64,000 nt of DNA from Synergistales bacterium (GTDB taxonomy: Bacteria > Synergistota > Synergistia > Synergistales > JAFGMB01), in contig OY762654.1 of assembly GCA_963666205.1 (NCBI GenBank), positions 1,568,001-1,632,000 on the forward strand, given 5' to 3'. The notes under the pieces are model-generated. The model searched no databases and was not told the DNA's origin. It was given only the letters and a program-made list of their open reading frames with translations. Below, one piece after another: positions 20,890-32,212 of the stretch; the stretch's first letter is position 1, and every line of letters starts with the position of its first letter. Both the position numbers and the translations under genes were made by a program.

Positions 20890-21006
20890 CCGGAATGGGC
20901 CCGTTTTTGGTAAAATATACTACCGGTGAGTAGTTATGGTATTATTCTGATTTGTTACATGTTTTTTCTTAAACGTTAAAAGATTAAAGAAAAGGATTTG
21001 GGAGAA

Positions 21007-21687
21007 ATGGCTGCTAAGAAAATATTTCATTCGTTAGGTGACCAGATCTTTGAAACTCTCAAAGAAATGATCGTGAACAATGATGTCGAACCGGGAGAGA
21101 TGCTTCAGATAGAGAGACTTGCTTCCGAGTTTGGAGTCAGTACTACTCCAATTCGTGAGGCTCTCACAAGACTCCAGTCTCTGGGTCTGGTTAAACAGGT
21201 TCGCAACAAAGGCGCCATAGTAACCCCTATAAGCGATAAAATGGCTCATGATGCATGGGAATTCAGAAGGGTTCTTGAAATATATGTTGTGGGATCTGCA
21301 GTAAATAAATGCACTCCCGAAGAACTTGAAAAAATGAGGGACCTTCTGAATAAGGTTCTTGAGGATACATCTGATTTTGATCTTTACAAAAAATCTGATC
21401 GTGAAATGCATAAACTTCTGCATAAATACTGCGATAATGAACTTATCAACAATTCCTTCGAACAGGTAAGCGATCTTGCACAGAGGGTTCGTTATTTCGC
21501 AGAGAGTTCTCCATGGAGAGACGAAGTTATCATTTCAGTGACCAATGAACATCTCCTGATTGTCGAATCCATGGTAAAACGAGATATTGAGATGACCCGG
21601 AAACATCTTCTTCAGCACCTTGTGAACGCTGAAAGAAGAACAATGAGAGCACTGGAAAGACTTCAGCAGGTCGAGGCAGAAGTCTGA
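21007..21687 (+). CDS. GntR (FCD) family transcriptional regulator
   Basis: LASEFGVSTTPIREAL HTH. FCD-type D..MH...N...EH..I residues. Divergent from the cluster. Confidence 0.92.
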   Translation: MAAKKIFHSLGDQIFETLKEMIVNNDVEPGEMLQIERLASEFGVSTTPIREALTRLQSLGLVKQVRNKGAIVTPISDKMAHDAWEFRRVLEIYVVGSAVNKCTPEELEKMRDLLNKVLEDTSDFDLYKKSDREMHKLLHKYCDNELINNSFEQVSDLAQRVRYFAESSPWRDEVIISVTNEHLLIVESMVKRDIEMTRKHLLQHLVNAERRTMRALERLQQVEAEV

Positions 21688-21745
21688 TCCTGGAGAATAC
21701 TTAAAAGGGTCACATTGATACATCACTATACAAAGGATTAAAAAC

Positions 21746-21781
21746 AGGAAGGGACTTTCCCGATCGGGAAAGTCCCTTCCT
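21746..21781. terminator. Perfect 36-bp palindrome between convergent gntR and livF
   Basis: AGGAAGGGACTTTCCCGA|TCGGGAAAGTCCCTTCCT, with A/T-rich flanks. Confidence 0.75.
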
Positions 21782-21888
21782 TATATAGTATAAAGAATAT
21801 CCGACTTATCTGCTTAAAACTGGAAAAGATCATGGCAGGCAGACGCGGTATTAATGCCATATATTTTTTTATACCCGGAATCAACAGG

Positions 21889-22605
21889 TCAGGAGATTGT
21901 TTTTCCCAGGTAGGCTTCCTGGACAACGCTGCTCCGCAAAAGCTCTTCGGCACTTCCCTGGAGGACTACATTTCCTCTTTCAAGGACATATCCCCTATGA
22001 GAAACAGATAATGCTATCTCTGCGTTCTGTTCCACGAGAAGGATGGAAATTCCCTGACTGTTTATCCTGACTATGTTATCAAATACTTCATCCACGATCA
22101 CCGGAGCAAGACCCATGGATGGTTCATCAAGGAGCAACAGGTCGGGACGGCTCATAAGCCCCCTGGCCATGACAAGCATCTGCTGCTCTCCCCCGGACAA
22201 TGTTCCGGCTATCTGTTTTATCCTTTCTTTCAAACGGGGGAACAGGGAAAAAGCCTTCTCCATATCCTCTTCAATTTCAGACCCGTTTTTTCTTGTATAT
22301 GCTCCCATTACAAGATTTTCCCTGACAGTAAGATCCGAAAATACATGTCTTCCTTCAGGGACATGGCCAATACCTGATTCAACTATTTTATGCGCCGGGA
22401 CGGAGGAGATCTCTTTGTTTTTGAAGATAACACTTCCGGAATGAATGGGAATAATATTCGAGATGGCAGACAATGTACTGGTTTTTCCGGCACCATTTGC
22501 TCCCAGAAGGGCAACTATCTCTCCGGCCTCAATGTTAAAAGAGATCCCCTGGACTGCATGGATCACGCCATAATACACATTAAGATCTTTAACTGTGAAT
22601 AACAT
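21889..22605 (-). CDS. livF: Branched-chain amino acid ABC transporter ATPase
   Basis: GANGAGKT, VPEGR.VF, LSGGEQQM, DEPSMGLAP, VEQNA. Confidence 0.93.
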   Translation of the reverse strand: MLFTVKDLNVYYGVIHAVQGISFNIEAGEIVALLGANGAGKTSTLSAISNIIPIHSGSVIFKNKEISSVPAHKIVESGIGHVPEGRHVFSDLTVRENLVMGAYTRKNGSEIEEDMEKAFSLFPRLKERIKQIAGTLSGGEQQMLVMARGLMSRPDLLLLDEPSMGLAPVIVDEVFDNIVRINSQGISILLVEQNAEIALSVSHRGYVLERGNVVLQGSAEELLRSSVVQEAYLGKTIS

Positions 22606-23374
22606 GACTTGATCTCCGTTTTCCTAAATATGCCTCAATCACATGGGGATCCTTCTGAACGTGATCAGGAGAACCCCTTGAAATTATCTTTCCGAAATTC
22701 ATTACTGCAATTCTTTCGCTCAAATTCATTACCAGACCCATCTGGTGTTCGATCAATAATATACCGAGAGAAAAATGCTCCCTGGAAAAGCGGATCAATT
22801 CAACAAGAGAATGAATTTCCCCGAGGGTCATCCCTGCAGCAGGTTCATCCAGAAGGAGTATTTTGGGCGTGATGGCGAGAGCACGCGCAATTTCGAGCCT
22901 TCGCTGCTGTCCATAGGGAAGGTTCCCCGCCAGTTCATCTGCCCGCCCTTCCAGACCGAACAGTTCAAGCATATGAAAGACCTTTTCACGAATAAGCTTT
23001 TCACCTTTTTTGAAGCTGCTATTTCGAATAACAGCTTCGAAAGAGCTGTATCCTGCCAACCGGTGGAAAGCTATCTCAAGATTTCGAAATACTGTCAGAT
23101 CCTTAAAGAGCCTGATATTCTGGAAGGTCCTTGCTATGCCCTTTTCTGCTATCCGGCTTGTTTTCTGCCCGATAAGGTTTTCGCCATCGAGCACAACACT
23201 TCCTTTAGAGGGGGGGTAGATCCCCGTAATGATATTAAAAACAGTTGTTTTTCCAGCTCCATTGGGACCGATCAATGCAACGATCTCTCCTGAATCAACG
23301 TCCAGGGAGAAATCGCTTACTGCAGTCAGACCTCCAAACTGTATGCTTATATCGCTGATCTTCAATAAACTCAA
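22589..23374 (-). CDS. livG: Branched-chain amino acid ABC transporter ATPase
   Basis: GPNGAGKTT, ARTFQNIRLF, LPYGQQRRLEIARA, DEPAAG, VIEAYLG. Confidence 0.93.
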   Translation of the reverse strand: MSLLKISDISIQFGGLTAVSDFSLDVDSGEIVALIGPNGAGKTTVFNIITGIYPPSKGSVVLDGENLIGQKTSRIAEKGIARTFQNIRLFKDLTVFRNLEIAFHRLAGYSSFEAVIRNSSFKKGEKLIREKVFHMLELFGLEGRADELAGNLPYGQQRRLEIARALAITPKILLLDEPAAGMTLGEIHSLVELIRFSREHFSLGILLIEHQMGLVMNLSERIAVMNFGKIISRGSPDHVQKDPHVIEAYLGKRRSSHVIHS

Positions 23375-23375
23375 T

Positions 23376-24353
23376 TTACTCCCCTCCCGTTCTGGTGCAC
23401 CACAGGAAAAAGCGTCTTTGTAAATACTTCAAGGGGTCCCTGCTTATGAAGATGATCAATAAAAGAGGATACAGGATCAGTCGAAGATCCTGGGAAAACC
23501 TTAATAATTCAGGAAGGACGGTAAGACCTATTCCTGCAATTACAGATCCGACGATACTTCCCATACCTCCTACGACGACCATAAGAAGGATCTCTATTGA
23601 CTTTATAAAGGTATATTGGGTTGGATGGGCCAGCTGGATCAGGTGTACAAGCATCCCTCCAGCCAGTGCAGCAAAAAAACAGCCGATAACAAGGGCATGG
23701 AGCTTGACTTTCAAGCTGTCAATACCCAGCGATTCTGCTGCAATTTCATCTCCAAGGATGGCTTCACAGTTCCGCCCCCTTGAAGAATGTATATATCTGC
23801 TTATGAAAACAACACTTATCCATGCGAGGAAGATCAGACTCCAGAGGTTACTGAGTTTTGGTATTCCATAAAAACCCCTTGGACCTCCCAGAAAATCCAG
23901 ATTATTCAAAGCCACTACTACTATCTGATTGAAACCCAGGGTCGCAATACAAAGGTAATCACCCGTGAGACGCAGGATTATCAAACCCAAAAAAAAGGCA
24001 ATCACTGCAGCGGCAAGGGCTCCGATCATAAGACTCAGAAGAAACAGAACAGTGCCTGAAAAAAAACCGGCTCCAGGTTTAAGGTGGAATACAGCTTTGG
24101 TCAAAAAGGCAGAAATATAGGCACCTACTGCCATAAAACCTGCATGCCCAAGAGAAAACTGCCCGGTTATGCCCGTTATCAGGTTCAGACTGAGGGTAAG
24201 GATCACATTACATAAACCCACCATTAAAACGAACATGATATATGGCGAAACCACCTGGAATCTGTCCAGGAAGATAAGGATGAGGGTCAGGATAAATGCA
24301 GTCACTGGCCATTTATATTTTACAAGAGATTGATAATTGAGGACTGATCCCAT
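23376..24353 (-). CDS. livM: Branched-chain amino acid ABC transporter permease
   Basis: GQFSLGHAGF, LRL.GDYL.IATLGF, GGMGS. Confidence 0.92.
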   Translation of the reverse strand: MGSVLNYQSLVKYKWPVTAFILTLILIFLDRFQVVSPYIMFVLMVGLCNVILTLSLNLITGITGQFSLGHAGFMAVGAYISAFLTKAVFHLKPGAGFFSGTVLFLLSLMIGALAAAVIAFFLGLIILRLTGDYLCIATLGFNQIVVVALNNLDFLGGPRGFYGIPKLSNLWSLIFLAWISVVFISRYIHSSRGRNCEAILGDEIAAESLGIDSLKVKLHALVIGCFFAALAGGMLVHLIQLAHPTQYTFIKSIEILLMVVVGGMGSIVGSVIAGIGLTVLPELLRFSQDLRLILYPLLLIIFISRDPLKYLQRRFFLWCTRTGGE

Positions 24354-24355
24354 CT

Positions 24356-25252
24356 CTACACCTTCTCCCTGGTACTTTTACCGAAGAGTCCAAAAGGTCT
24401 TATCAGCAATACAACGAGCAGCAGAAGGAAAAAAACCCCTTCGGCCATCTGTGAATTAACAGCCGTAGCAGCGGTTTCTATGATTCCCATAAGCATTCCC
24501 CCCACCATGGCTCCGGGAATACTTCCAATTCCTCCAAAAACAGCAGCAATAAATGCCTTTAATCCGGGCATTATCCCCATATAGGGACTTAAGCGAGGAT
24601 AAGTTATTGCGGTGAGTACCCCCGCGGCACCTGCCAGGGCTCCTCCGAGGGCAAATGTGGCCGAGATGACCCTCTCTACATTTACACCCATAAGCTTTGC
24701 CCCTTTAGGATCAAGAGAGACCGCCCGCATGGCAATACCAAGTTTTGTTTTCTTGATAATGAACCAAAGCATAAGCATCAGGCTTATTGCCATTACCAGG
24801 TTTATTATCTGAATGTTTGTAATAATAATGTTTTCGGTTAATGAAAAATTTTTGACATTTATTACATCTGGAAAACGTCTGAAACTCGGCCCAATGAATG
24901 GAAGGGCCCTGCAGCCATTCTCCAGGAGTAAAGAAACACCCATTGCGGTGATCAATGCCTTTAACCTGGGCTGGGACCTAAGGGGTTTATATGCAACTTT
25001 ATCCATGATAATAGCTCCCAGTGCACCAACCGCCATGGATGCCACAAAAGCAACGGGCAAAGGAACATGCAGGTTAACCAGAAAATATGCTACATATGCG
25101 GCGATCATCAGAAGATCACCATGAGCAAAATTTATAAGTTTCAGAATTCCATAGACCATTGTGTATCCCAATGCCATGAGGGCATAAATGGCGCCAAGCT
25201 GTATACCATTGATAAGCTGAATAATAACTAATTCCATATGACAAAGCACCAT
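24356..25252 (-). CDS. livH: Branched-chain amino acid ABC transporter permease
   Basis: ALGYTMVYG...LINFAHG, GLKAF.AAV.GGIG. Confidence 0.92.
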   Translation of the reverse strand: MVLCHMELVIIQLINGIQLGAIYALMALGYTMVYGILKLINFAHGDLLMIAAYVAYFLVNLHVPLPVAFVASMAVGALGAIIMDKVAYKPLRSQPRLKALITAMGVSLLLENGCRALPFIGPSFRRFPDVINVKNFSLTENIIITNIQIINLVMAISLMLMLWFIIKKTKLGIAMRAVSLDPKGAKLMGVNVERVISATFALGGALAGAAGVLTAITYPRLSPYMGIMPGLKAFIAAVFGGIGSIPGAMVGGMLMGIIETAATAVNSQMAEGVFFLLLLVVLLIRPFGLFGKSTREKV

Positions 25253-25261
25253 CCTTAAAAC

Positions 25262-25307
25262 CAGGGATCCTGTTCAGGATTCATAGATCACATCAACAGG
25301 ATCCCTG
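25262..25307 (-). other. Intercistronic stem-loop between livK and livH
   Basis: CAGGGATCCTGTT...AACAGGATCCCTG, a 13-bp stem. Such hairpins are common after binding-protein genes. Confidence 0.6.
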
Positions 25308-25365
25308 AACTATTTAATAACTCTTTTCTGACACCAGGAACGATGCAGGAAGAGATGTCAGAATG

Positions 25366-26499
25366 TTACTGGATGGGCTGATAACTCTTCATATAATCGA
25401 TCCGCCCGTCTTTGATAACGAGAATAGCAGCCGGGAGGGTCATGGGATCTCCGTTTTCATCAAGGGTAATATCACCCTGGGCAGCCTTCAATCCATTCGT
25501 TTTTGCGATGGCATCTGCAACTGCTCCTCTATCTTCTTTACCTGCGGAACGGATACCGTCAATAACCATTAGTGCGGCATCATACCCCATGATGGCTAAC
25601 AGATCGGGTTCTGAATTATATTTCTTTTTATACTCTTCGATAAAGAACCTTGTTTCAGTACGGGGATCCTCTTTTGAAAAATGACTGCAGTAATATGCTC
25701 CTTCCAATGAAACCAGATCAAGCTCTGGCGAATCCCAACCGTCAGAACCTACAAAAACAGCCTCAATACCGATATCTTTTGCCTGTCTGGCAATAAGGTT
25801 GGCATCATTGTAGAAATCCGAGAAAAAGAAAACATCAGGTTTTTTAGATTTGATAATACTTAACTGGGCCCTGAAGTCTACTGCCTGGGATGGATGGGTC
25901 TGAACCGTAACTACCTTTCCTCCCTCAGCTTCAAAAGTCCTTATAAAGACTTCGGCAACACTCTTGGCATAATCATTTCCAAGGTCATAAAGAACTGCGG
26001 CTGTTTTAGCAGATAATTCGTTTACACAGAATCTTCCCATTACCACTCCCTGAAAATCATCGGTCCAACAGCTTCTTGATACAAAATGCTTTTCAGGAGT
26101 GATGGCCGGATTCGTTCCTGTTACAACTGTGGGCACCCCGGCATCCTCCACTATGGAAGATACTGCCATACCGATAGTACTGGGAATTGGGCCGACAATT
26201 GCCAGCACATTGTCCTGCCCGATCAGTTTAAGGGCGGCACCTGCCCCGATAACAGGATCTCCCTGATCATCCTCATTCAGAAGCCTGATCTGCTTCCCCA
26301 GAACTCCACCATTCATATTTGCCTGTTCAACAGCCAGTTCAACACCATTTCTATGACTTTCTCCATAAGTCGATAAAGGCCCGGTAAGACACGCAATATT
26401 ACCTATTTTGATAGCATCACTGGAAGCCCACGTGGCACCTGCAGCAAAAATGATCATAAGGCTCACCGCAAAGAACATAAAAACTCTCTTACCCTTCAT
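25366..26499 (-). CDS. livK: Branched-chain amino acid ABC transporter substrate-binding protein
   Basis: Signal peptide, IKIG....LTG, GGVLGK, D..QG, GSDGWD, GYDA. Confidence 0.9.
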   Translation of the reverse strand: MKGKRVFMFFAVSLMIIFAAGATWASSDAIKIGNIACLTGPLSTYGESHRNGVELAVEQANMNGGVLGKQIRLLNEDDQGDPVIGAGAALKLIGQDNVLAIVGPIPSTIGMAVSSIVEDAGVPTVVTGTNPAITPEKHFVSRSCWTDDFQGVVMGRFCVNELSAKTAAVLYDLGNDYAKSVAEVFIRTFEAEGGKVVTVQTHPSQAVDFRAQLSIIKSKKPDVFFFSDFYNDANLIARQAKDIGIEAVFVGSDGWDSPELDLVSLEGAYYCSHFSKEDPRTETRFFIEEYKKKYNSEPDLLAIMGYDAALMVIDGIRSAGKEDRGAVADAIAKTNGLKAAQGDITLDENGDPMTLPAAILVIKDGRIDYMKSYQPIQ

Positions 26500-26628
26500 T
26501 CTGTTCACTCCCCTTATTCTGAGTCTAATTAAAGCTCCTTGAGTTCTTATTTCATGTAGAATTATTCATGTCCCTTTTCAGGAAGGCAAAAGGGAACTTG
26601 TTTTAGGATTATCTCGTCAGAAGAATTT

Positions 26629-27504
26629 TTAATATACCGGAGTTCCTTCCTTGTGGATCAGTATCTTGAAACATTCGATCAGGGAAGTGGTTATCGGTCC
26701 TGCAGTTGAATCGCCAATTTCTCTTCCATCAACCATTCTTACATGACATATCTCTGCTCCTGTTCCACAGACAAAGGCTTCGTCACATGTATACACATCC
26801 CCCAGGGTGATATCCTTTTCGCACGTGGGTATCTCCATTTCCCGAGCCATTTCAATTACTGTCTGACGGGTTATTCCATGGAGGATATTTGTTCTAAGGG
26901 GAGAATAGAGCACTCCATTTTTAACGATAAGAAAATTTTCTCCCGGTCCCTCTGCAACAAAACCCTGTACATCAAGAAGCAGAGCTTCATCGCAATCAGA
27001 AGCTGTGGCTTCCTGTTTTGCCATAATACCGTTAACATATGTGCCCACACATTTGGCACGGGAATCAAAACAGGCCGGGGGAAATTTCCTCACAGCAGAA
27101 GTTTTCATGGTTATCCCCGAATCTCCAAGGAAGGGCTTCCATGGATGAGCGAGGACTATAACAGTGGGATCATAGTCGGGATCAGGTCCGACTCCCAGAC
27201 CCATGCCACGGGTAATGATAGGCCTTATGTGGGCATCTCTGAGGCTGTTTTCACGAAGGGTATCTAAAACAATTTCTTTCAATTCATCTTTTGTCGATGG
27301 GATCTTTATCCCCAGGATCCTGGCTGAATCAAAAAGTCTGTCTATATGTTCATCCAGCTTGAAAACTTTTCCATCGTATTCTCTGATCCCCTCAAAAACG
27401 GCATCTCCATAGAGAAGACCTCTGTCAAAAGGTGAGATACCCGGCTCGTCAGCAGGAACAAATTTTCCGTTGATATAAACCTTTAACCCTGATAAATCGA
27501 TCAT
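26629..27504 (-). CDS. ilvE: Branched-chain amino acid aminotransferase (PLP fold IV)
   Basis: YGD.VFEGIR, H..RL..SA, catalytic K in RAK, EG.GEN, L.GITR, GTGAE. SD GGGAGG. Confidence 0.9.
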   Translation of the reverse strand: MIDLSGLKVYINGKFVPADEPGISPFDRGLLYGDAVFEGIREYDGKVFKLDEHIDRLFDSARILGIKIPSTKDELKEIVLDTLRENSLRDAHIRPIITRGMGLGVGPDPDYDPTVIVLAHPWKPFLGDSGITMKTSAVRKFPPACFDSRAKCVGTYVNGIMAKQEATASDCDEALLLDVQGFVAEGPGENFLIVKNGVLYSPLRTNILHGITRQTVIEMAREMEIPTCEKDITLGDVYTCDEAFVCGTGAEICHVRMVDGREIGDSTAGPITTSLIECFKILIHKEGTPVY

Positions 27505-27589
27505 TCTTGCATTCCTCCCTGTCTTTAGAACTGTGGATCCATTAAAAACTATCATCCTGATAATGTTCTATGCACATTGCATTACAGGT

Positions 27590-28426
27590 TTAATCCAATT
27601 TTGAGATTTCTTCAATATCTTCCCTGCTGATACCGGAAAATACATGTTCCTCTGAAGGAAACTGTTTCTGCTTAACTTCCTCATTAAAACTCTGAAGCGC
27701 CTTGATGATCTCTTCTCCTATCTGCTTATACTGCTTTACAAACCTGGGTACAAACTTGTCAAAAAGGCCAAGCATGTCATGGAAAACAAGAACCTGTCCA
27801 TCACAATATCTACCCGCACCTATTCCTATCACGGGTATCGATAAAGCTTCAGAAACAGCCCTTCCCAATTCCTCAGGAACACACTCCAGTACAATGGAAA
27901 AAGCTCCCGCTTCCTCAAGATATTTCGCTTCATCAATAAGCTTCTTCGCCGATTCCAGACTTTTTCCCTGGACTTTGAATCCTCCAAGGAGAGAAGCTGT
28001 CTGAGGAGTAAGACCGATATGACCCTGTACAGGGATTCCTGCTTCCACTATTGCTCTCACTACTTCCGGCCTTCCTCCTTCCAGTTTAACGGCATCGCAT
28101 CCTCCTTCTTTCATCATACGGTTGGCGCTGGAAATAGCCTGTGATATGCTTTCGTTATAGGATCCGAAGACCATATCTCCAATGATCATGGCAGATGGCG
28201 CTCCTTTTACCACTGGACGAATATGGTGGATCATTTCGTCAGTAGTAAGAGAAACTGTCCCCTCATTTCCCAACATAGTCATTGACAGAGAATCACCCAC
28301 CAGGATAATCTCTATCCCGGCTTTCTCGACAAGAACAGCCTGAGAATAATCATAAGCCGTAACCATGGATATCTTTTCTTTGCCTTCCTTCATTTTCTGC
28401 ATCTTTTGAATGGTAAACTTTGCCAT
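27590..28426 (-). CDS. panB: 3-methyl-2-oxobutanoate hydroxymethyltransferase
   Basis: TAYD, LVGDS, VKLEGG, GHIGLTPQ, VLECVP, IGIGAG, DGQVLV.HD. Confidence 0.96.
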   Translation of the reverse strand: MAKFTIQKMQKMKEGKEKISMVTAYDYSQAVLVEKAGIEIILVGDSLSMTMLGNEGTVSLTTDEMIHHIRPVVKGAPSAMIIGDMVFGSYNESISQAISSANRMMKEGGCDAVKLEGGRPEVVRAIVEAGIPVQGHIGLTPQTASLLGGFKVQGKSLESAKKLIDEAKYLEEAGAFSIVLECVPEELGRAVSEALSIPVIGIGAGRYCDGQVLVFHDMLGLFDKFVPRFVKQYKQIGEEIIKALQSFNEEVKQKQFPSEEHVFSGISREDIEEISKLD

Positions 28427-28455
28427 TCTTTTCAAACCCCTTTCAGCTTTTAGAT

Positions 28456-28492
28456 AAAAAAAAGGCCGGGACCCCTTTTAGGGTCCCGGCCT
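28456..28492 (-). terminator. Attenuator terminator in the panB leader
   Basis: Minus strand AGGCCGGGACCC-TAAAAG-GGGTCCCGGCC followed by T8, about 30 nt before panB. Confidence 0.9.
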
Positions 28493-28510
28493 GAAGGTTG
28501 CGGCTAAAGG

Positions 28511-28612
28511 TTAAACGCCAACATCCACTCCAGGAAGGACCCTGCAGCTTAGGACATCGACTACTACAACAACGGCAAAAGATATTCTCTTCGTAACACG
28601 TGAACGGTCCAC
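28511..28612 (-). CDS. Valine-rich leader (attenuator) peptide, 33 aa
   Basis: SD AAGGGGAG, 8 nt, then GTG. Translation MDRSRVTKRISFAVVVVVDVLSCRVLPGVDVGV* has 11 Val codons including 5 in tandem. Confidence 0.85.
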   Translation of the reverse strand: MDRSRVTKRISFAVVVVVDVLSCRVLPGVDVGV

Positions 28613-28659
28613 TGGACTCACTCCCCTTGAAGGAATGCATAGAATGTGAATTGGTGGCA

Positions 28660-28688
28660 ATTCTATAGAAGATTGCCCAAAAGGTCAA
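28660..28688 (-). promoter_or_regulatory. Sigma70 promoter of the leader-panB-ilvE-liv operon
   Basis: TTGACC (28688-28683), 17 nt, TAGAAT (28665-28660). Confidence 0.8.
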
Positions 28689-28887
28689 CCCTTTTTTCAG
28701 AATTTTCATGAAAGATCTTGAAAAAATCTGCATAATCTCTTTAACATCAACCTTTACATTTACATCCTGACACTCCCATGACCCTTTACAGGAAATTCTG
28801 CATATTCTGTAATTCCCGGGGGATCAAAAGTCAAAAGAGGGCAAATGCACATCCATCTTACCTCTTTCATATTCATGGAAAACAATT

Positions 28888-30294
28888 CTAGAGCATTGCT
28901 TCTACGGCCATCCCGCTCTCCTCAAGCACTGACTGGGCGGCGACCAGTCCGCTGGAGGCAGCCTGCACAATTCCCCGGCTCACTCCGGCTCCATCGCCCA
29001 CCATGTACAGGTTTTTCACCCCGGGGACTTCGAGGGTACTTTTTAACTCAAGCCTGAGCGAATAAAGCTTTATCTCAACACCATAAAGGAGGGTATCGCT
29101 GTGGTTTACTCCAGGCATGATAATATTCAGGGCATCGAGGAACTCGACAATATCTACAAGATGTCTGTGGGGCAGCACAAGGCTCAGGTCACCAGGCTGT
29201 GCATTGGCTGTTGGCGCGACCATTCCCCGCCTGATACGGGCCTCTGTGGATCGTCTTCCATCCCTGAGGTCGCCAAGCCTCTGAAGTAGTATGCCTCCAC
29301 CGGCCAGCATGTTGGCCAGTTTGCCTATATGGGTAGCATAACCTATGGGATTACTGAAGGGCTGTGTAAAATTCTTGGTCACCAGGATAGCAAAGTTGGT
29401 ATTCCTGGACTTTGTCTCTTTGAGACTATGTCCATTGACTGTCACGAGGTTGTGGGACCGGCTGTATTCTGTTACAACGAATCCGGATGGGTTCATGCAG
29501 AAGGTTCGGCAGCGGTCATCAAAGGTCGGAGTATTGTAGAGACACTTCACTTCATAGAAGTGTTCCGTAAGGTCCTCACATACGCTATCCGGGACCTCCA
29601 CCCGGACTCCTATGTCCACAGGCATGGAAGCGATGGGCAGCTGAAGTCTGTTCACTATGTTCTCCAACCAGGAAGCCCCGTCTCTGCCAGGAGCTACTAT
29701 TACACTGTCAGCATGGTAAATTCCATCATCCTTTAAAATTACACCTCTGGCTTTTCCTTTTTCGACTATTATGTCCTTGACAAAGGTGTTGAGCATGATG
29801 TCACATTTTTCTTTAAGGTCAAGATACATGTTATTAAGAACTTCTCTGGAAGCATCGGTACCTATGTGACGGATCCTTGCAGGAAGTACCTTTATCCCGA
29901 CACTGGCCGCTTTGCGTATGGTTTCCTTGACAATGGGGCCGCCGGGTTCATAACAGTGGTTGTCTGCACCAAAACTGACAAAGGTTCTATCAACCATATC
30001 AATATACTGATCCAGTCTCCCATCACCTATGTATTCCTCGAGGTTGCCTCCGAATCCGGTGGTGAGGGTAAGTTTGCCGTCCGAGGCAGAACCTGCTCCT
30101 CCCCAGCCTGATACTACACTGCAGACGGCACAATTGACGCAGGTTTTGGCCTTTCCCTCAAGGACAGGGCAATGCCTTTCCTTGATCACCTTTCCCTTGT
30201 CGATTATGAGCACTTTTTTGTTGTGCTTCACAAGTTCTGTAGCCGCAAATATTCCCGCAGGTCCTGAGCCGACAATTATGGCATCGTATTTCAT
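28888..30294 (-). CDS. FAD-dependent oxidoreductase (uncharacterised COG2509-like)
   Basis: IVGSGPAG, G.GGAG..SDGKL, RHIGT, DIGVRVE, RTFC.NP.G, VNGHS, GDGAG.SRG. SD AAGGAG. Confidence 0.85.
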   Translation of the reverse strand: MKYDAIIVGSGPAGIFAATELVKHNKKVLIIDKGKVIKERHCPVLEGKAKTCVNCAVCSVVSGWGGAGSASDGKLTLTTGFGGNLEEYIGDGRLDQYIDMVDRTFVSFGADNHCYEPGGPIVKETIRKAASVGIKVLPARIRHIGTDASREVLNNMYLDLKEKCDIMLNTFVKDIIVEKGKARGVILKDDGIYHADSVIVAPGRDGASWLENIVNRLQLPIASMPVDIGVRVEVPDSVCEDLTEHFYEVKCLYNTPTFDDRCRTFCMNPSGFVVTEYSRSHNLVTVNGHSLKETKSRNTNFAILVTKNFTQPFSNPIGYATHIGKLANMLAGGGILLQRLGDLRDGRRSTEARIRRGMVAPTANAQPGDLSLVLPHRHLVDIVEFLDALNIIMPGVNHSDTLLYGVEIKLYSLRLELKSTLEVPGVKNLYMVGDGAGVSRGIVQAASSGLVAAQSVLEESGMAVEAML

Positions 30295-31297: not shown

Positions 31298-32212
31298 CTA
31301 TTCGTACCCCCGGTTGGTGTTGAGGGTCTTTAGCATGGCGTACATGGCTCTGGTATAGGGAAATTCATCTTCATTCCGGGCATATTTCAGAACCCCTCCG
31401 GGTATGGTTTCCACTTCCATCCGTCTTCCGGCCAGGTTGTCCTGAAGCATGGAGGGAATATTGGTGGCCGTCTTGCGGATGTTATCCAGAAAGGTGTCCC
31501 AGAGTTCTTCCATTTCCAGGTTTATTCCTTCCCTACATGCAGCCTCCACGGTCTCCCTGCCTATTTCCTTCATTAATTCCAGGATAAGGGGGCTTGAGAT
31601 AAGACCTTCATTATTAAGCCCTGTCATGGCTGCACAGGTGTTGACCATGTTGTTTATGGTGAGCTTCTTCCATATGAAAGGCCTTGGGTCTTCCACGTAT
31701 TTCACATTAAAGGCACTCCTTTTGAGGATTTCCATCACCCAGACCATATCATATTCTGCACTCCATGGCCCCAGGACGATCAGGGCGCCTCCTGCCTCCT
31801 GGACAACTCCGGGAGCACGCTTTATGGCTCCCCAGTGGGCAACTCCTGCAGCTACCTTTTCCTCCCCGAATATGGAGGAGAGGGTCTCGGCGTTTCCCAG
31901 TCCATTCTGAAGGGTAAGTACCACTCCTCCCTTTTTCAGAATGTCCCTTAGAGGGTCCAGTTCTTCAGTGCTGAAGGACTTTACCAGCACGATGATCAGT
32001 TCTGTGGGTTCAAGGTCCTGCACTCTGTCCGATACAGAAGAAAGGATATAGTTCCGTGAACTGCTCCTGTCTTCCGACTCTATGGTGAGCCTTTTTTTCA
32101 ATGCATCAAGAGTGGCTCCCCGTCTCTGGTAGACCTGCACTCTGAAACCTCCATCCAGGAGTTTCGAGGCAAATATGCTCCCCAGGGCTCCACAGCCTGC
32201 TATGGTTATCAT
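31298..32212 (-). CDS. panE: Ketopantoate reductase family protein (paralog 3)
   Basis: GCGALG, VKS, LQNGLG, WKKL..N, SMLQD...GR..E. Confidence 0.85.
   Translation of the reverse strand: MITIAGCGALGSIFASKLLDGGFRVQVYQRRGATLDALKKRLTIESEDRSSSRNYILSSVSDRVQDLEPTELIIVLVKSFSTEELDPLRDILKKGGVVLTLQNGLGNAETLSSIFGEEKVAAGVAHWGAIKRAPGVVQEAGGALIVLGPWSAEYDMVWVMEILKRSAFNVKYVEDPRPFIWKKLTINNMVNTCAAMTGLNNEGLISSPLILELMKEIGRETVEAACREGINLEMEELWDTFLDNIRKTATNIPSMLQDNLAGRRMEVETIPGGVLKYARNEDEFPYTRAMYAMLKTLNTNRGYE

Follow-up and report, generated by a model that had tools for sequence, protein, structure and literature searches.

A valine-codon leader and predicted transcription attenuator ahead of panB belongs to a multi-copy leader family with different codon blocks in Synergistales

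Leader-peptide attenuation of the trp, his, leu and ilv operons is a textbook paradigm, and the documented leader-peptide attenuators are few and mostly known from a single locus. In this work we analysed a 64,000-nucleotide stretch of a Synergistales bacterium genome (assembly GCA_963666205.1, contig OY762654.1, positions 1,568,001 to 1,632,000 of the forward strand; hereafter the 64-kb window), in which an original prediction made from the letters alone had placed a valine-sensing leader peptide and transcription attenuator ahead of a panB-ilvE-livKHMGF gene set. All features of this locus lie on the minus strand and are given in window coordinates. Judged from its sequence and that of its relatives, the panB leader is very probably a ribosome-mediated (leader-peptide) transcription attenuator, and the element is not peculiar to panB but one member of a multi-copy, order-wide family.

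The enterobacterial leaders of ilvGMEDA (ilvL) and ilvBN (ivbL) resemble the panB leader in their open reading frame (ORF) led by a Shine-Dalgarno (SD) sequence, their run of cognate codons and their terminator before the first gene, as well as in the mutually exclusive protector, antiterminator and terminator structures and the proposed logic of a stalled ribosome. In contrast, the Synergistales leaders show no sequence relationship to them, occur in the phylum Synergistota and have targets that include panB and transporters. To our knowledge, the enterobacterial leaders do not comprise many paralogs built on one homologous scaffold with different codon blocks. The mechanism is textbook, and the leader family is new and modular. 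Gram-positive ilv/leu leader attenuators include the Leu-rich attenuator peptide of Staphylococcus aureus (PMC5794164) and the upstream ORF (uORF) of Corynebacterium ilvB-II (PMC10272879); as far as the accessible parts of these reports describe them, both are likewise lineage-specific uORF attenuators of branched-chain genes found by comparative genomics, yet single-locus and of one specificity, whereas the Synergistales family has at least six block types and, in this genus, at least ten copies per genome. Within the accessible literature, no leader-peptide attenuator was found for Synergistetes/Synergistota or for panB; the cross-phylum survey of Lopatovskaya et al. 2010 (Mol Biol 44:128, cited in PMC4833913) lies outside this coverage, and the accessible part of Stav et al. 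2019 (PMC6429828), a study in which Thermovirga lienii was analysed, lists no uORF candidates for this species (Table S1).

By analogy only, the family can also be set beside the T-box, a terminator/antiterminator scaffold that is likewise duplicated within genomes and re-targeted through a small specificity element, namely the specifier codon in the T-box and the codon block in the Synergistales leaders, with a similar target range of amino-acid synthesis and transport. The sensors differ, as the T-box binds tRNA directly and the Synergistales leader is proposed to use the translating ribosome. No T-box (RF00230) was found at E ≤ 10 in 27500-29500 of the window; elsewhere in the same genome there are six T-box matches, three of them above the Rfam cut-off and two in tandem (C1 2844706, 435222, 315533, 824150, 776848 and 777122), and tRNA-sensing and putative ribosome-sensing attenuators therefore coexist there.

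The anatomy of the locus could be read directly from the sequence. A sigma-70-like promoter at 28688-28660 (TTGACC at 28688-28683, a 17-nt spacer and TAGAAT at 28665-28660) matches 10 of 12 consensus positions and recurs in the orthologous locus of a same-genus genome (G001), although on its own it is weak evidence because a scan of the 2-kb region returned five promoter-like sites against 3.2 expected. Transcription would start a few bases past the -10 box. The SD sequence AAGGGGAG (28628-28621) lies 8 nt upstream of a GTG start (28612-28610), which opens a leader ORF of 33 codons plus TAA (28612-28511, stop at 28513-28511) encoding MDRSRVTKRISFAVVVVVDVLSCRVLPGVDVGV, with 11 valines in 33 codons. 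Its regulatory block at 28573-28553 consists of Val codons 14-18 (GTT GTT GTA GTA GTC, 28573-28559), a GAT codon and Val codon 20 (GTC, 28555-28553). The intrinsic terminator ('3:4', 28492-28455, -29.4 kcal/mol) follows, with a 13-bp stem at 28492-28463 that contains ten G-C pairs and a 4-nt loop, and a T8 run at 28462-28455; it ends 29 nt before the ATG of panB. The promoter, the SD-led GTG frame with its tandem valine codons and the GC-rich stem with T8 described in the original prediction are all present, and an SD-led short ORF, a cognate codon cluster and a terminator before the first gene are features of an attenuator.

Secondary-structure prediction added the switch itself, that is, an antiterminator mutually exclusive with the terminator, together with a protector further upstream, which a stalled ribosome would disrupt. 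The 206-nt leader folded more stably than 200 of 200 shuffled sequences (z = -3.38), and the minimum-energy fold of the full-length leader consists of protector plus terminator. The protector (anti-antiterminator, '1:2') hairpin at 28561-28517 (-23.0 kcal/mol) has an outer stem in which GUCGAUGUCC, the last Val codons, pairs with GGAUGUUGGC, and an inner family-conserved hairpin, GCUGCAGGG..CCUGGAGU, which is the RNAalifold consensus of the family; its 5' strand is accordingly made up of GUCGAUGUCC and GCUGCAGGG. The antiterminator ('2:3', 28543-28480, -30.0 kcal/mol) pairs AGGGUCC, CCUGGAG and GUUG with CAAC, CUUCAGG and GGACCCU, as the original prediction had claimed from complementarity, and occupies the 5' arm of the terminator, so that in folding the three structures are mutually exclusive. 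With the RNA masked to 13 nt past an A-site placed at each of Val codons 14-18 and 20, all six simulated stalls gave the antiterminator as minimum-energy fold. The folding proposed as a check of the prediction thus yielded all three structures, and one detail had to be revised: the segment TCCAGTGGACC at the start codon, suggested as protector through pairing with GGTCC..CTGGA, is indeed complementary here, yet this pairing is missing from the minimum-energy fold and unconserved in the G001 ortholog. The start-codon segment UCCAGUGGACC was therefore rejected as a conserved protector, and the analysis supports an anti-antiterminator formed by the last Val codons and AGCUGC paired with GGAG..GGAUGUUGGC (28561-28517).

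In the resulting model, RNA polymerase would start just past the -10 box, and a ribosome would load at the SD/GTG and translate the 33-codon leader. With plentiful Val-tRNA the ribosome would pass the Val block to the TAA and cover or pass the CCUGGAG arm, upon which the 13-bp terminator with T8 would form and transcription would end at about 28455-28462. If the leader were left untranslated, the protector hairpin at 28561-28517 would sequester the CCUGGAG arm and lead to termination too. Scarce Val-tRNA would instead stall the ribosome at codons 14-20, where its footprint would melt the 5' strand of the protector and leave AGGGUCC..CCUGGAG free to pair with CAAC-CUUCAGG-GGACCCU; this antiterminator would pre-empt the terminator and allow readthrough into panB. 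The element would in this way sense valine supply via charged tRNA-Val and control panB-ilvE-livKHMGF. The response to valine, the ribosome stalling and the RNA 3' end at the panB leader are what we infer from these arrangements.

Metatranscriptome contigs from three runs of one study cover 28518-28769, a span that includes the promoter region and the greater part of the leader ORF; such contigs do not reveal the ends, strand or abundance of an RNA and may stem from carried-over DNA, and they weigh on neither side. A contig from a fourth run, of another study, covers panB up to 28430, and across the four runs (26500-28900) the terminator is bridged by no contig. One low-depth contig variant carries TTG instead of GTG as start codon and GTC instead of GTA at one Val codon. 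A 96-codon ORF in another frame (28443-28733, minus strand) runs across promoter, leader and terminator and, though almost certainly spurious, is of a type liable to be annotated as a hypothetical protein.

BLASTN searches with the leader against 40 relatives returned mostly terminator-only matches, and a covariance model (R1) was used instead, built from 13 sequences with the RNAalifold consensus of the protector hairpin and the terminator as structure. Of the 151 genomes sampled from the order, 100 had an R1 match at E ≤ 1e-3, and these covered 45 of 51 genera; in families f1 to f10, matches occurred in 4/4, 3/3, 14/38, 28/38, 8/8, 8/9, 3/3, 3/5, 19/19 and 9/23 genomes. The genome carrying the window has at least 12 full-length copies at E<1e-5, hence at least 11 besides the panB leader. 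To compare frames, pairing and codon blocks, we re-aligned to R1 the own-genome copies together with the 140 listed matches from other genomes that scored highest, which gave 151 rows (150 unique), with about 150 lower-scoring matches lying outside this set; among the examined matches, the two genomes of this genus hold 10 and 13 copies. The shared scaffold comprises the core AGCUGCGGGUCCCYUCCUGGAG, a stop codon 18 or 21 nt downstream of CCU and a terminator with GGCCGGGAYCC. A 21-nt core pattern, searched as an exact match in one genome for each of 185,579 species, occurred at 34 loci. Thirteen of these have the full element, and every one comes from a record labelled as Synergistales, Synergistaceae, Acetomicrobium or Dethiosulfovibrio; the remaining 21 lack the full element and were dismissed as chance matches to the pattern, which is narrow and may miss divergent relatives outside the order.

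Translation of the leader ORF is suggested by its conservation across the family. Copies were anchored at the conserved CCU of CCUGGAG and each of the three frames was scored for an SD matching at least 5/6 positions, a start codon, an ORF of 15-45 codons and a stop within 60 nt. The CCU-GGA frame has this combination in 120 of 150 copies, compared with 4/150 and 5/150 for the other frames, and the stop lies exactly 18 or 21 nt past the anchor in 132/150. As SD and start are located upstream of the 5' end of R1, they were not selected by the search, whereas the stop lies inside R1 and may have been partly favoured by it. SD-led ORFs were present in 68 of 76 genomes and 26 of 32 genera, and in each of the ten families represented among the examined matches. 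The codon block itself was compared using the 121 of 150 12-codon blocks that passed the filters (107 unique), which provided 68 pairs differing at 1-7 positions. Differences at codon positions 1, 2 and 3 numbered 80, 56 and 119, and synonymous changes made up 84/204 codon changes in frame versus 33/195 and 20/239 in the shifted frames, which supports a coding signature in the regulatory block.

The structures, in turn, co-vary. For the protector and terminator, pairs were counted on an alignment of 100 distinct rows (A4) that is fitted to the structure, which favours pairing: standard pairs occupied 96.1% of cells against 87.6% in shuffles (0/500 as high), 16 of 20 pairs changed on both sides, and sliding the partner by one column lowered pairing to 59-63%. 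The protector helices were 90.9 and 96.7% paired, with double changes in four of seven pairs, and compensatory changes were seen across the family in 12 of 13 terminator pairs. The antiterminator was evaluated on 137 copies with a called leader and no N (108 non-redundant) by pairing the arms of each copy with one another or with the arms of other copies. Cognate duplexes averaged -23.5 kcal/mol versus -19.4 kcal/mol for non-cognate ones, and none of 5000 permutations gave a mean as low as the cognate one. The middle base of CCYGG is paired as U-A in 61, C-G in 34 and U-G in 6 of the 108, and the central base of GGGUCCC as U-A in 65, G-C in 20, U-G in 10 and G-U in 6. Co-variation of antiterminator, protector and terminator is thereby supported at the level of aligned copies, and the family-level tests place the whole arrangement above chance.

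The third line of evidence is that the codon block follows the downstream gene. Downstream genes were named by NCBIfam for 33 exemplars and for the others by BLASTP to these exemplars. Residues were counted as means over the 12 codons before AGCUGC, with identical blocks collapsed and copies without a called leader or with an in-block stop excluded; several classes hold one or two blocks, and 28 further distinct blocks have no classified downstream gene. Ahead of panB (n = 2) the block averages 6.5 Val, and ahead of a short ACT gene plus ilvC (n = 5) it averages 5.2 Ile and 2.8 Val. Blocks before ilvN (n = 27) are mixed, with 2.9 Leu, 2.9 Ile and 3.1 Val, as are those before NSS-type sodium transporters (n = 7; 3.6 Ile, 2.4 Leu, 2.3 Val). 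Leucine dominates before leuA (n = 10; 4.3 Leu, 1.6 Ile, 0.6 Val) and leuC (n = 2; 3.5 Leu), and phenylalanine before amino-acid ABC binding proteins (n = 4; 6.0 Phe) and a sodium:solute symporter (n = 1; 4 Phe, 2 Tyr, 1 Trp), while the single block before a homoserine dehydrogenase has 3 Met and 2 Thr. At least six block types thus appear on one scaffold (Val, Ile, Leu, mixed branched-chain, Phe/aromatic and Met/Thr), and we propose that the stretch of about 12 codons preceding the core would determine specificity.

Individual copies illustrate this range. In the own genome, tandem Ile-rich leaders at C1:2316504-2316876 (+) precede an 83-aa ACT-domain (ilvN-like) gene and ilvC; they are nearly identical, each with its own SD, ORF and terminator, encode the 33-codon peptides MKGTSFIKIQHINVIIIAIIISCGSLPGAFVGC and MKGTSFVKIQYINIIIIAIIINCGSLPGAFVGC in the same register with Ile replacing Val, and recur as the same tandem pair in G001. 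Further own-genome blocks, with the downstream gene in brackets, are SFFSFFF (amino-acid ABC binding protein), SIIIVLII (fumarylacetoacetate-hydrolase-family hydratase), NLLGLL (leuC), LFIVFIYII (aminotransferase), YVYFIYFIIF (membrane protein of no assigned function) and SYYFYYWF (none called). The copy at G001:C8:505685-505811, with the block ..VVMFGMGTMTTS.., stands directly before homoserine dehydrogenase and, as a single example, suggests a Met/Thr-sensing version.

Three other explanations were weighed against a ribosome-mediated attenuator. The core RNA could be a binding site through which the terminator is controlled by a protein or small ligand, as for TRAP, PyrR or a riboswitch, with the ORF incidental. 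Its very strong conservation, third codon positions included, and the many copies per genome, explicable by a single shared regulator, speak for such a site; the conservation is, however, explained by pairing of the core in both protector and antiterminator, and an incidental ORF would neither keep SD, start, frame and stop in 120/150 copies versus 4-5/150 nor show a synonymous excess and a gene-matched codon block. No Rfam family matches either, and we regard this explanation as improbable. Alternatively, the hairpin with T8 could terminate transcription constitutively or leakily, or shield the locus from readthrough out of the upstream oxidoreductase gene, without any amino-acid sensing, and the Val run could be a chance feature of a spurious ORF. 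Between that gene, whose stop lies at 28888, and the leader promoter no terminator-like site was found, and the metatranscriptome contigs do extend upstream of the predicted promoter, to 28769. Yet the Val run is kept with a synonymous change in G001, paralogs have Ile, Leu and Phe runs at the same scaffold position, and the antiterminator is conserved and co-varying, which leaves a terminator or insulator of this kind a very doubtful account of the locus.

Least probable, in our estimate, are functional hydrophobic micropeptides (membrane or lipoprotein-signal-like) whose short transcript is merely ended by the terminator. Most leaders do resemble signal or transmembrane peptides, with a K/R-rich N-terminus, a hydrophobic core and L-I-S-C-G resembling a lipobox, and weak sub-threshold Pfam/NCBIfam matches to small membrane proteins (PetM, stannin) occur, none at cut-off. 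The Cys is missing in many copies, however (..IISSGS.., ..IISRGS.., ..IIGHGF..), many blocks are not signal-like and match the downstream gene instead (FFFSFFF, SYYFYYWF, MFGMGTMTT), and the C-terminal half is conserved as nucleotides complementary to the 5' arm of the terminator. In 132/150 copies, moreover, a simple ORF finder places the start of a same-strand ORF within about 400 nt downstream, some of these calls in GC-rich genomes looking spurious. A ribosome-mediated attenuator is backed, in turn, by the conserved frame, SD, start and stop, the coding signature, the co-varying structures and the codons that track downstream genes.

Several points weigh against this preferred reading and its valine-specific form. 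Under the criteria used, a clean SD-led ORF is missing from 30 of 150 copies. Because the copies are related to each other, the permutation counts exaggerate their independence, and the antiterminator pair tables derive from energy-minimising duplex prediction, which is biased towards pairing. With the 3' arm of the terminator removed, the antiterminator is thermodynamically favoured even without a modelled ribosome, and the off state therefore depends on the kinetics of co-transcriptional protector folding and on ribosome position. The arrangement of Val leader and panB occurs in two genomes of one genus only, so that the valine-specific case rests on one ortholog and on analogy with the paralogs. 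Induction of panB under valine scarcity would also be odd in physiological terms, as the valine precursor 2-oxoisovalerate is consumed by PanB.

Downstream of the leader, panB (3-methyl-2-oxobutanoate hydroxymethyltransferase; 27590-28426, minus strand, as are all genes of this set; NCBIfam TIGR00222, 321 bits versus a cut-off of 207.55) is the first structural gene, followed by ilvE (branched-chain amino-acid aminotransferase; 26629-27555; TIGR01122, 302.8 bits versus 245.55) and by livK/H/M/G/F-like genes of a branched-chain amino-acid ABC transporter (21889-26508, individually 26508-25366, 25252-24356, 24353-23376, 23374-22589 and 22605-21889). The gene order of the original prediction thus holds firmly for panB and ilvE, whereas the five liv-like products, whose best NCBIfam matches are Liv models, all score under the equivalog cut-offs and are assigned at family level only. 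A likely operon-end terminator with a 16-bp stem and T-run follows livF at 21781-21746; since it is the only other strong minus-strand terminator within 21000-29000, the seven genes plausibly form one transcription unit.

The comparison of panB upstream regions proposed as a check found the same leader-panB arrangement in the same-genus genome G001, whose leader is the sole ortholog. Its leader peptide, VKHSRVTKRVSFDVVVVVDVLSCRVLPGVDVGV, keeps the five Val codons, one of them synonymously changed from GTA to GTC, on a scaffold that is 97% identical. Among 30 panB loci taken from 25 genomes, R1 matched a Val leader before panB at two, and both belong to this genus, the only one in this sample with the arrangement; orthologous panB genes of other genera (65-75% identity) have no such leader and are followed by a panE-like gene. 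In the window, a panE-family gene lies about 3 kb upstream of panB (31298-32212, minus strand), and panB is instead joined to ilvE-liv. The own genome also encodes a second panB paralog with 49% identity (C1:1114698-1115480). The scaffold of the panB leader is nearest to leaders of ilvN-like/ilvC and of NSS transporters (74-76% identity), which suggests that a leader was recently duplicated and then re-coded to valine; the valine/panB copy would in that case have branched off recently, at genus level, from an Ile/Val ilvN-ilvC leader. For the family as a whole, we lean slightly towards the view that one ancestral attenuator was duplicated and re-programmed across Synergistales by swapping the roughly 12-codon block before an invariant RNA switch, giving a genome-wide amino-acid-starvation regulon that would be a ribosome-based counterpart of the T-box. 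Its targets would include biosynthetic genes, several transporter families and panB.

The family would add Synergistota, amino-acid-fermenting anaerobes, to the phyla with leader-peptide attenuation, and its distinctive trait is the reuse of one homologous scaffold with different codon blocks in at least ten copies per genome in this genus. Such naturally occurring homologous switches, distinct mainly in their codon block, suit tests of how codon identity, number and position affect the specificity and gain of attenuation, as well as studies of attenuator evolution by duplication and re-coding. In annotation, short hydrophobic ORFs, of which there are dozens, become open to reinterpretation along with longer spurious ones (e.g. 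28443-28733), genes of unknown role behind Phe, Tyr or Ile/Leu/Val leaders gain functional hints, and a panB paralog would be linked to valine status.

Database searches place the family outside described ones. Rfam gave nothing relevant at the locus at E ≤ 10 and no match at E ≤ 0.01 in ten other family loci; sub-threshold matches at the locus (RsaE, mmgR and others) align to the terminator hairpin only and were discarded. None of 20 family leader peptides reached a Pfam or NCBIfam cut-off, and the panB leader peptide has no match to a known leader family in Pfam. The best known-leader match among the 20 was PF08046 IlvGEDA_leader (E = 0.29, 11.2 bits versus a cut-off of 25) for one non-panB copy.

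Some minor features of the leaders were also recorded. Many mimic lipoprotein signal peptides, with a basic N-terminus, a hydrophobic run and L/I-I-S-C-G, a resemblance that could lead to mislabelling by gene callers or signal-peptide predictors. In most copies the conserved core encodes ..S-C-G-S-P-P-G.., with L-P-G at the panB leader (28543-28528, minus strand). Pro-Pro-Gly is a strong ribosome pause motif dependent on elongation factor P (EF-P); the core-encoded motif might add an EF-P-dependent pause, or may be a mere by-product of CCUCCUGGAG pairing. The own-genome copies with the other codon blocks listed above lie at C1 1468207-1468329(-), 1188078-1188207(+), 1189484-1189610(+), 1090628-1090751(-), 992563-992690(-), 911222-911344(+), 1479567-1479698(-), 2320024-2320155(+) and 1749019-1749142(+), among them a degenerate Leu copy whose terminator has apparently decayed. 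One NSS-transporter leader (G051:C43) carries a 12-nt insertion within the conserved core, which results in an ORF of 62 codons, and may be a decaying or altered copy.

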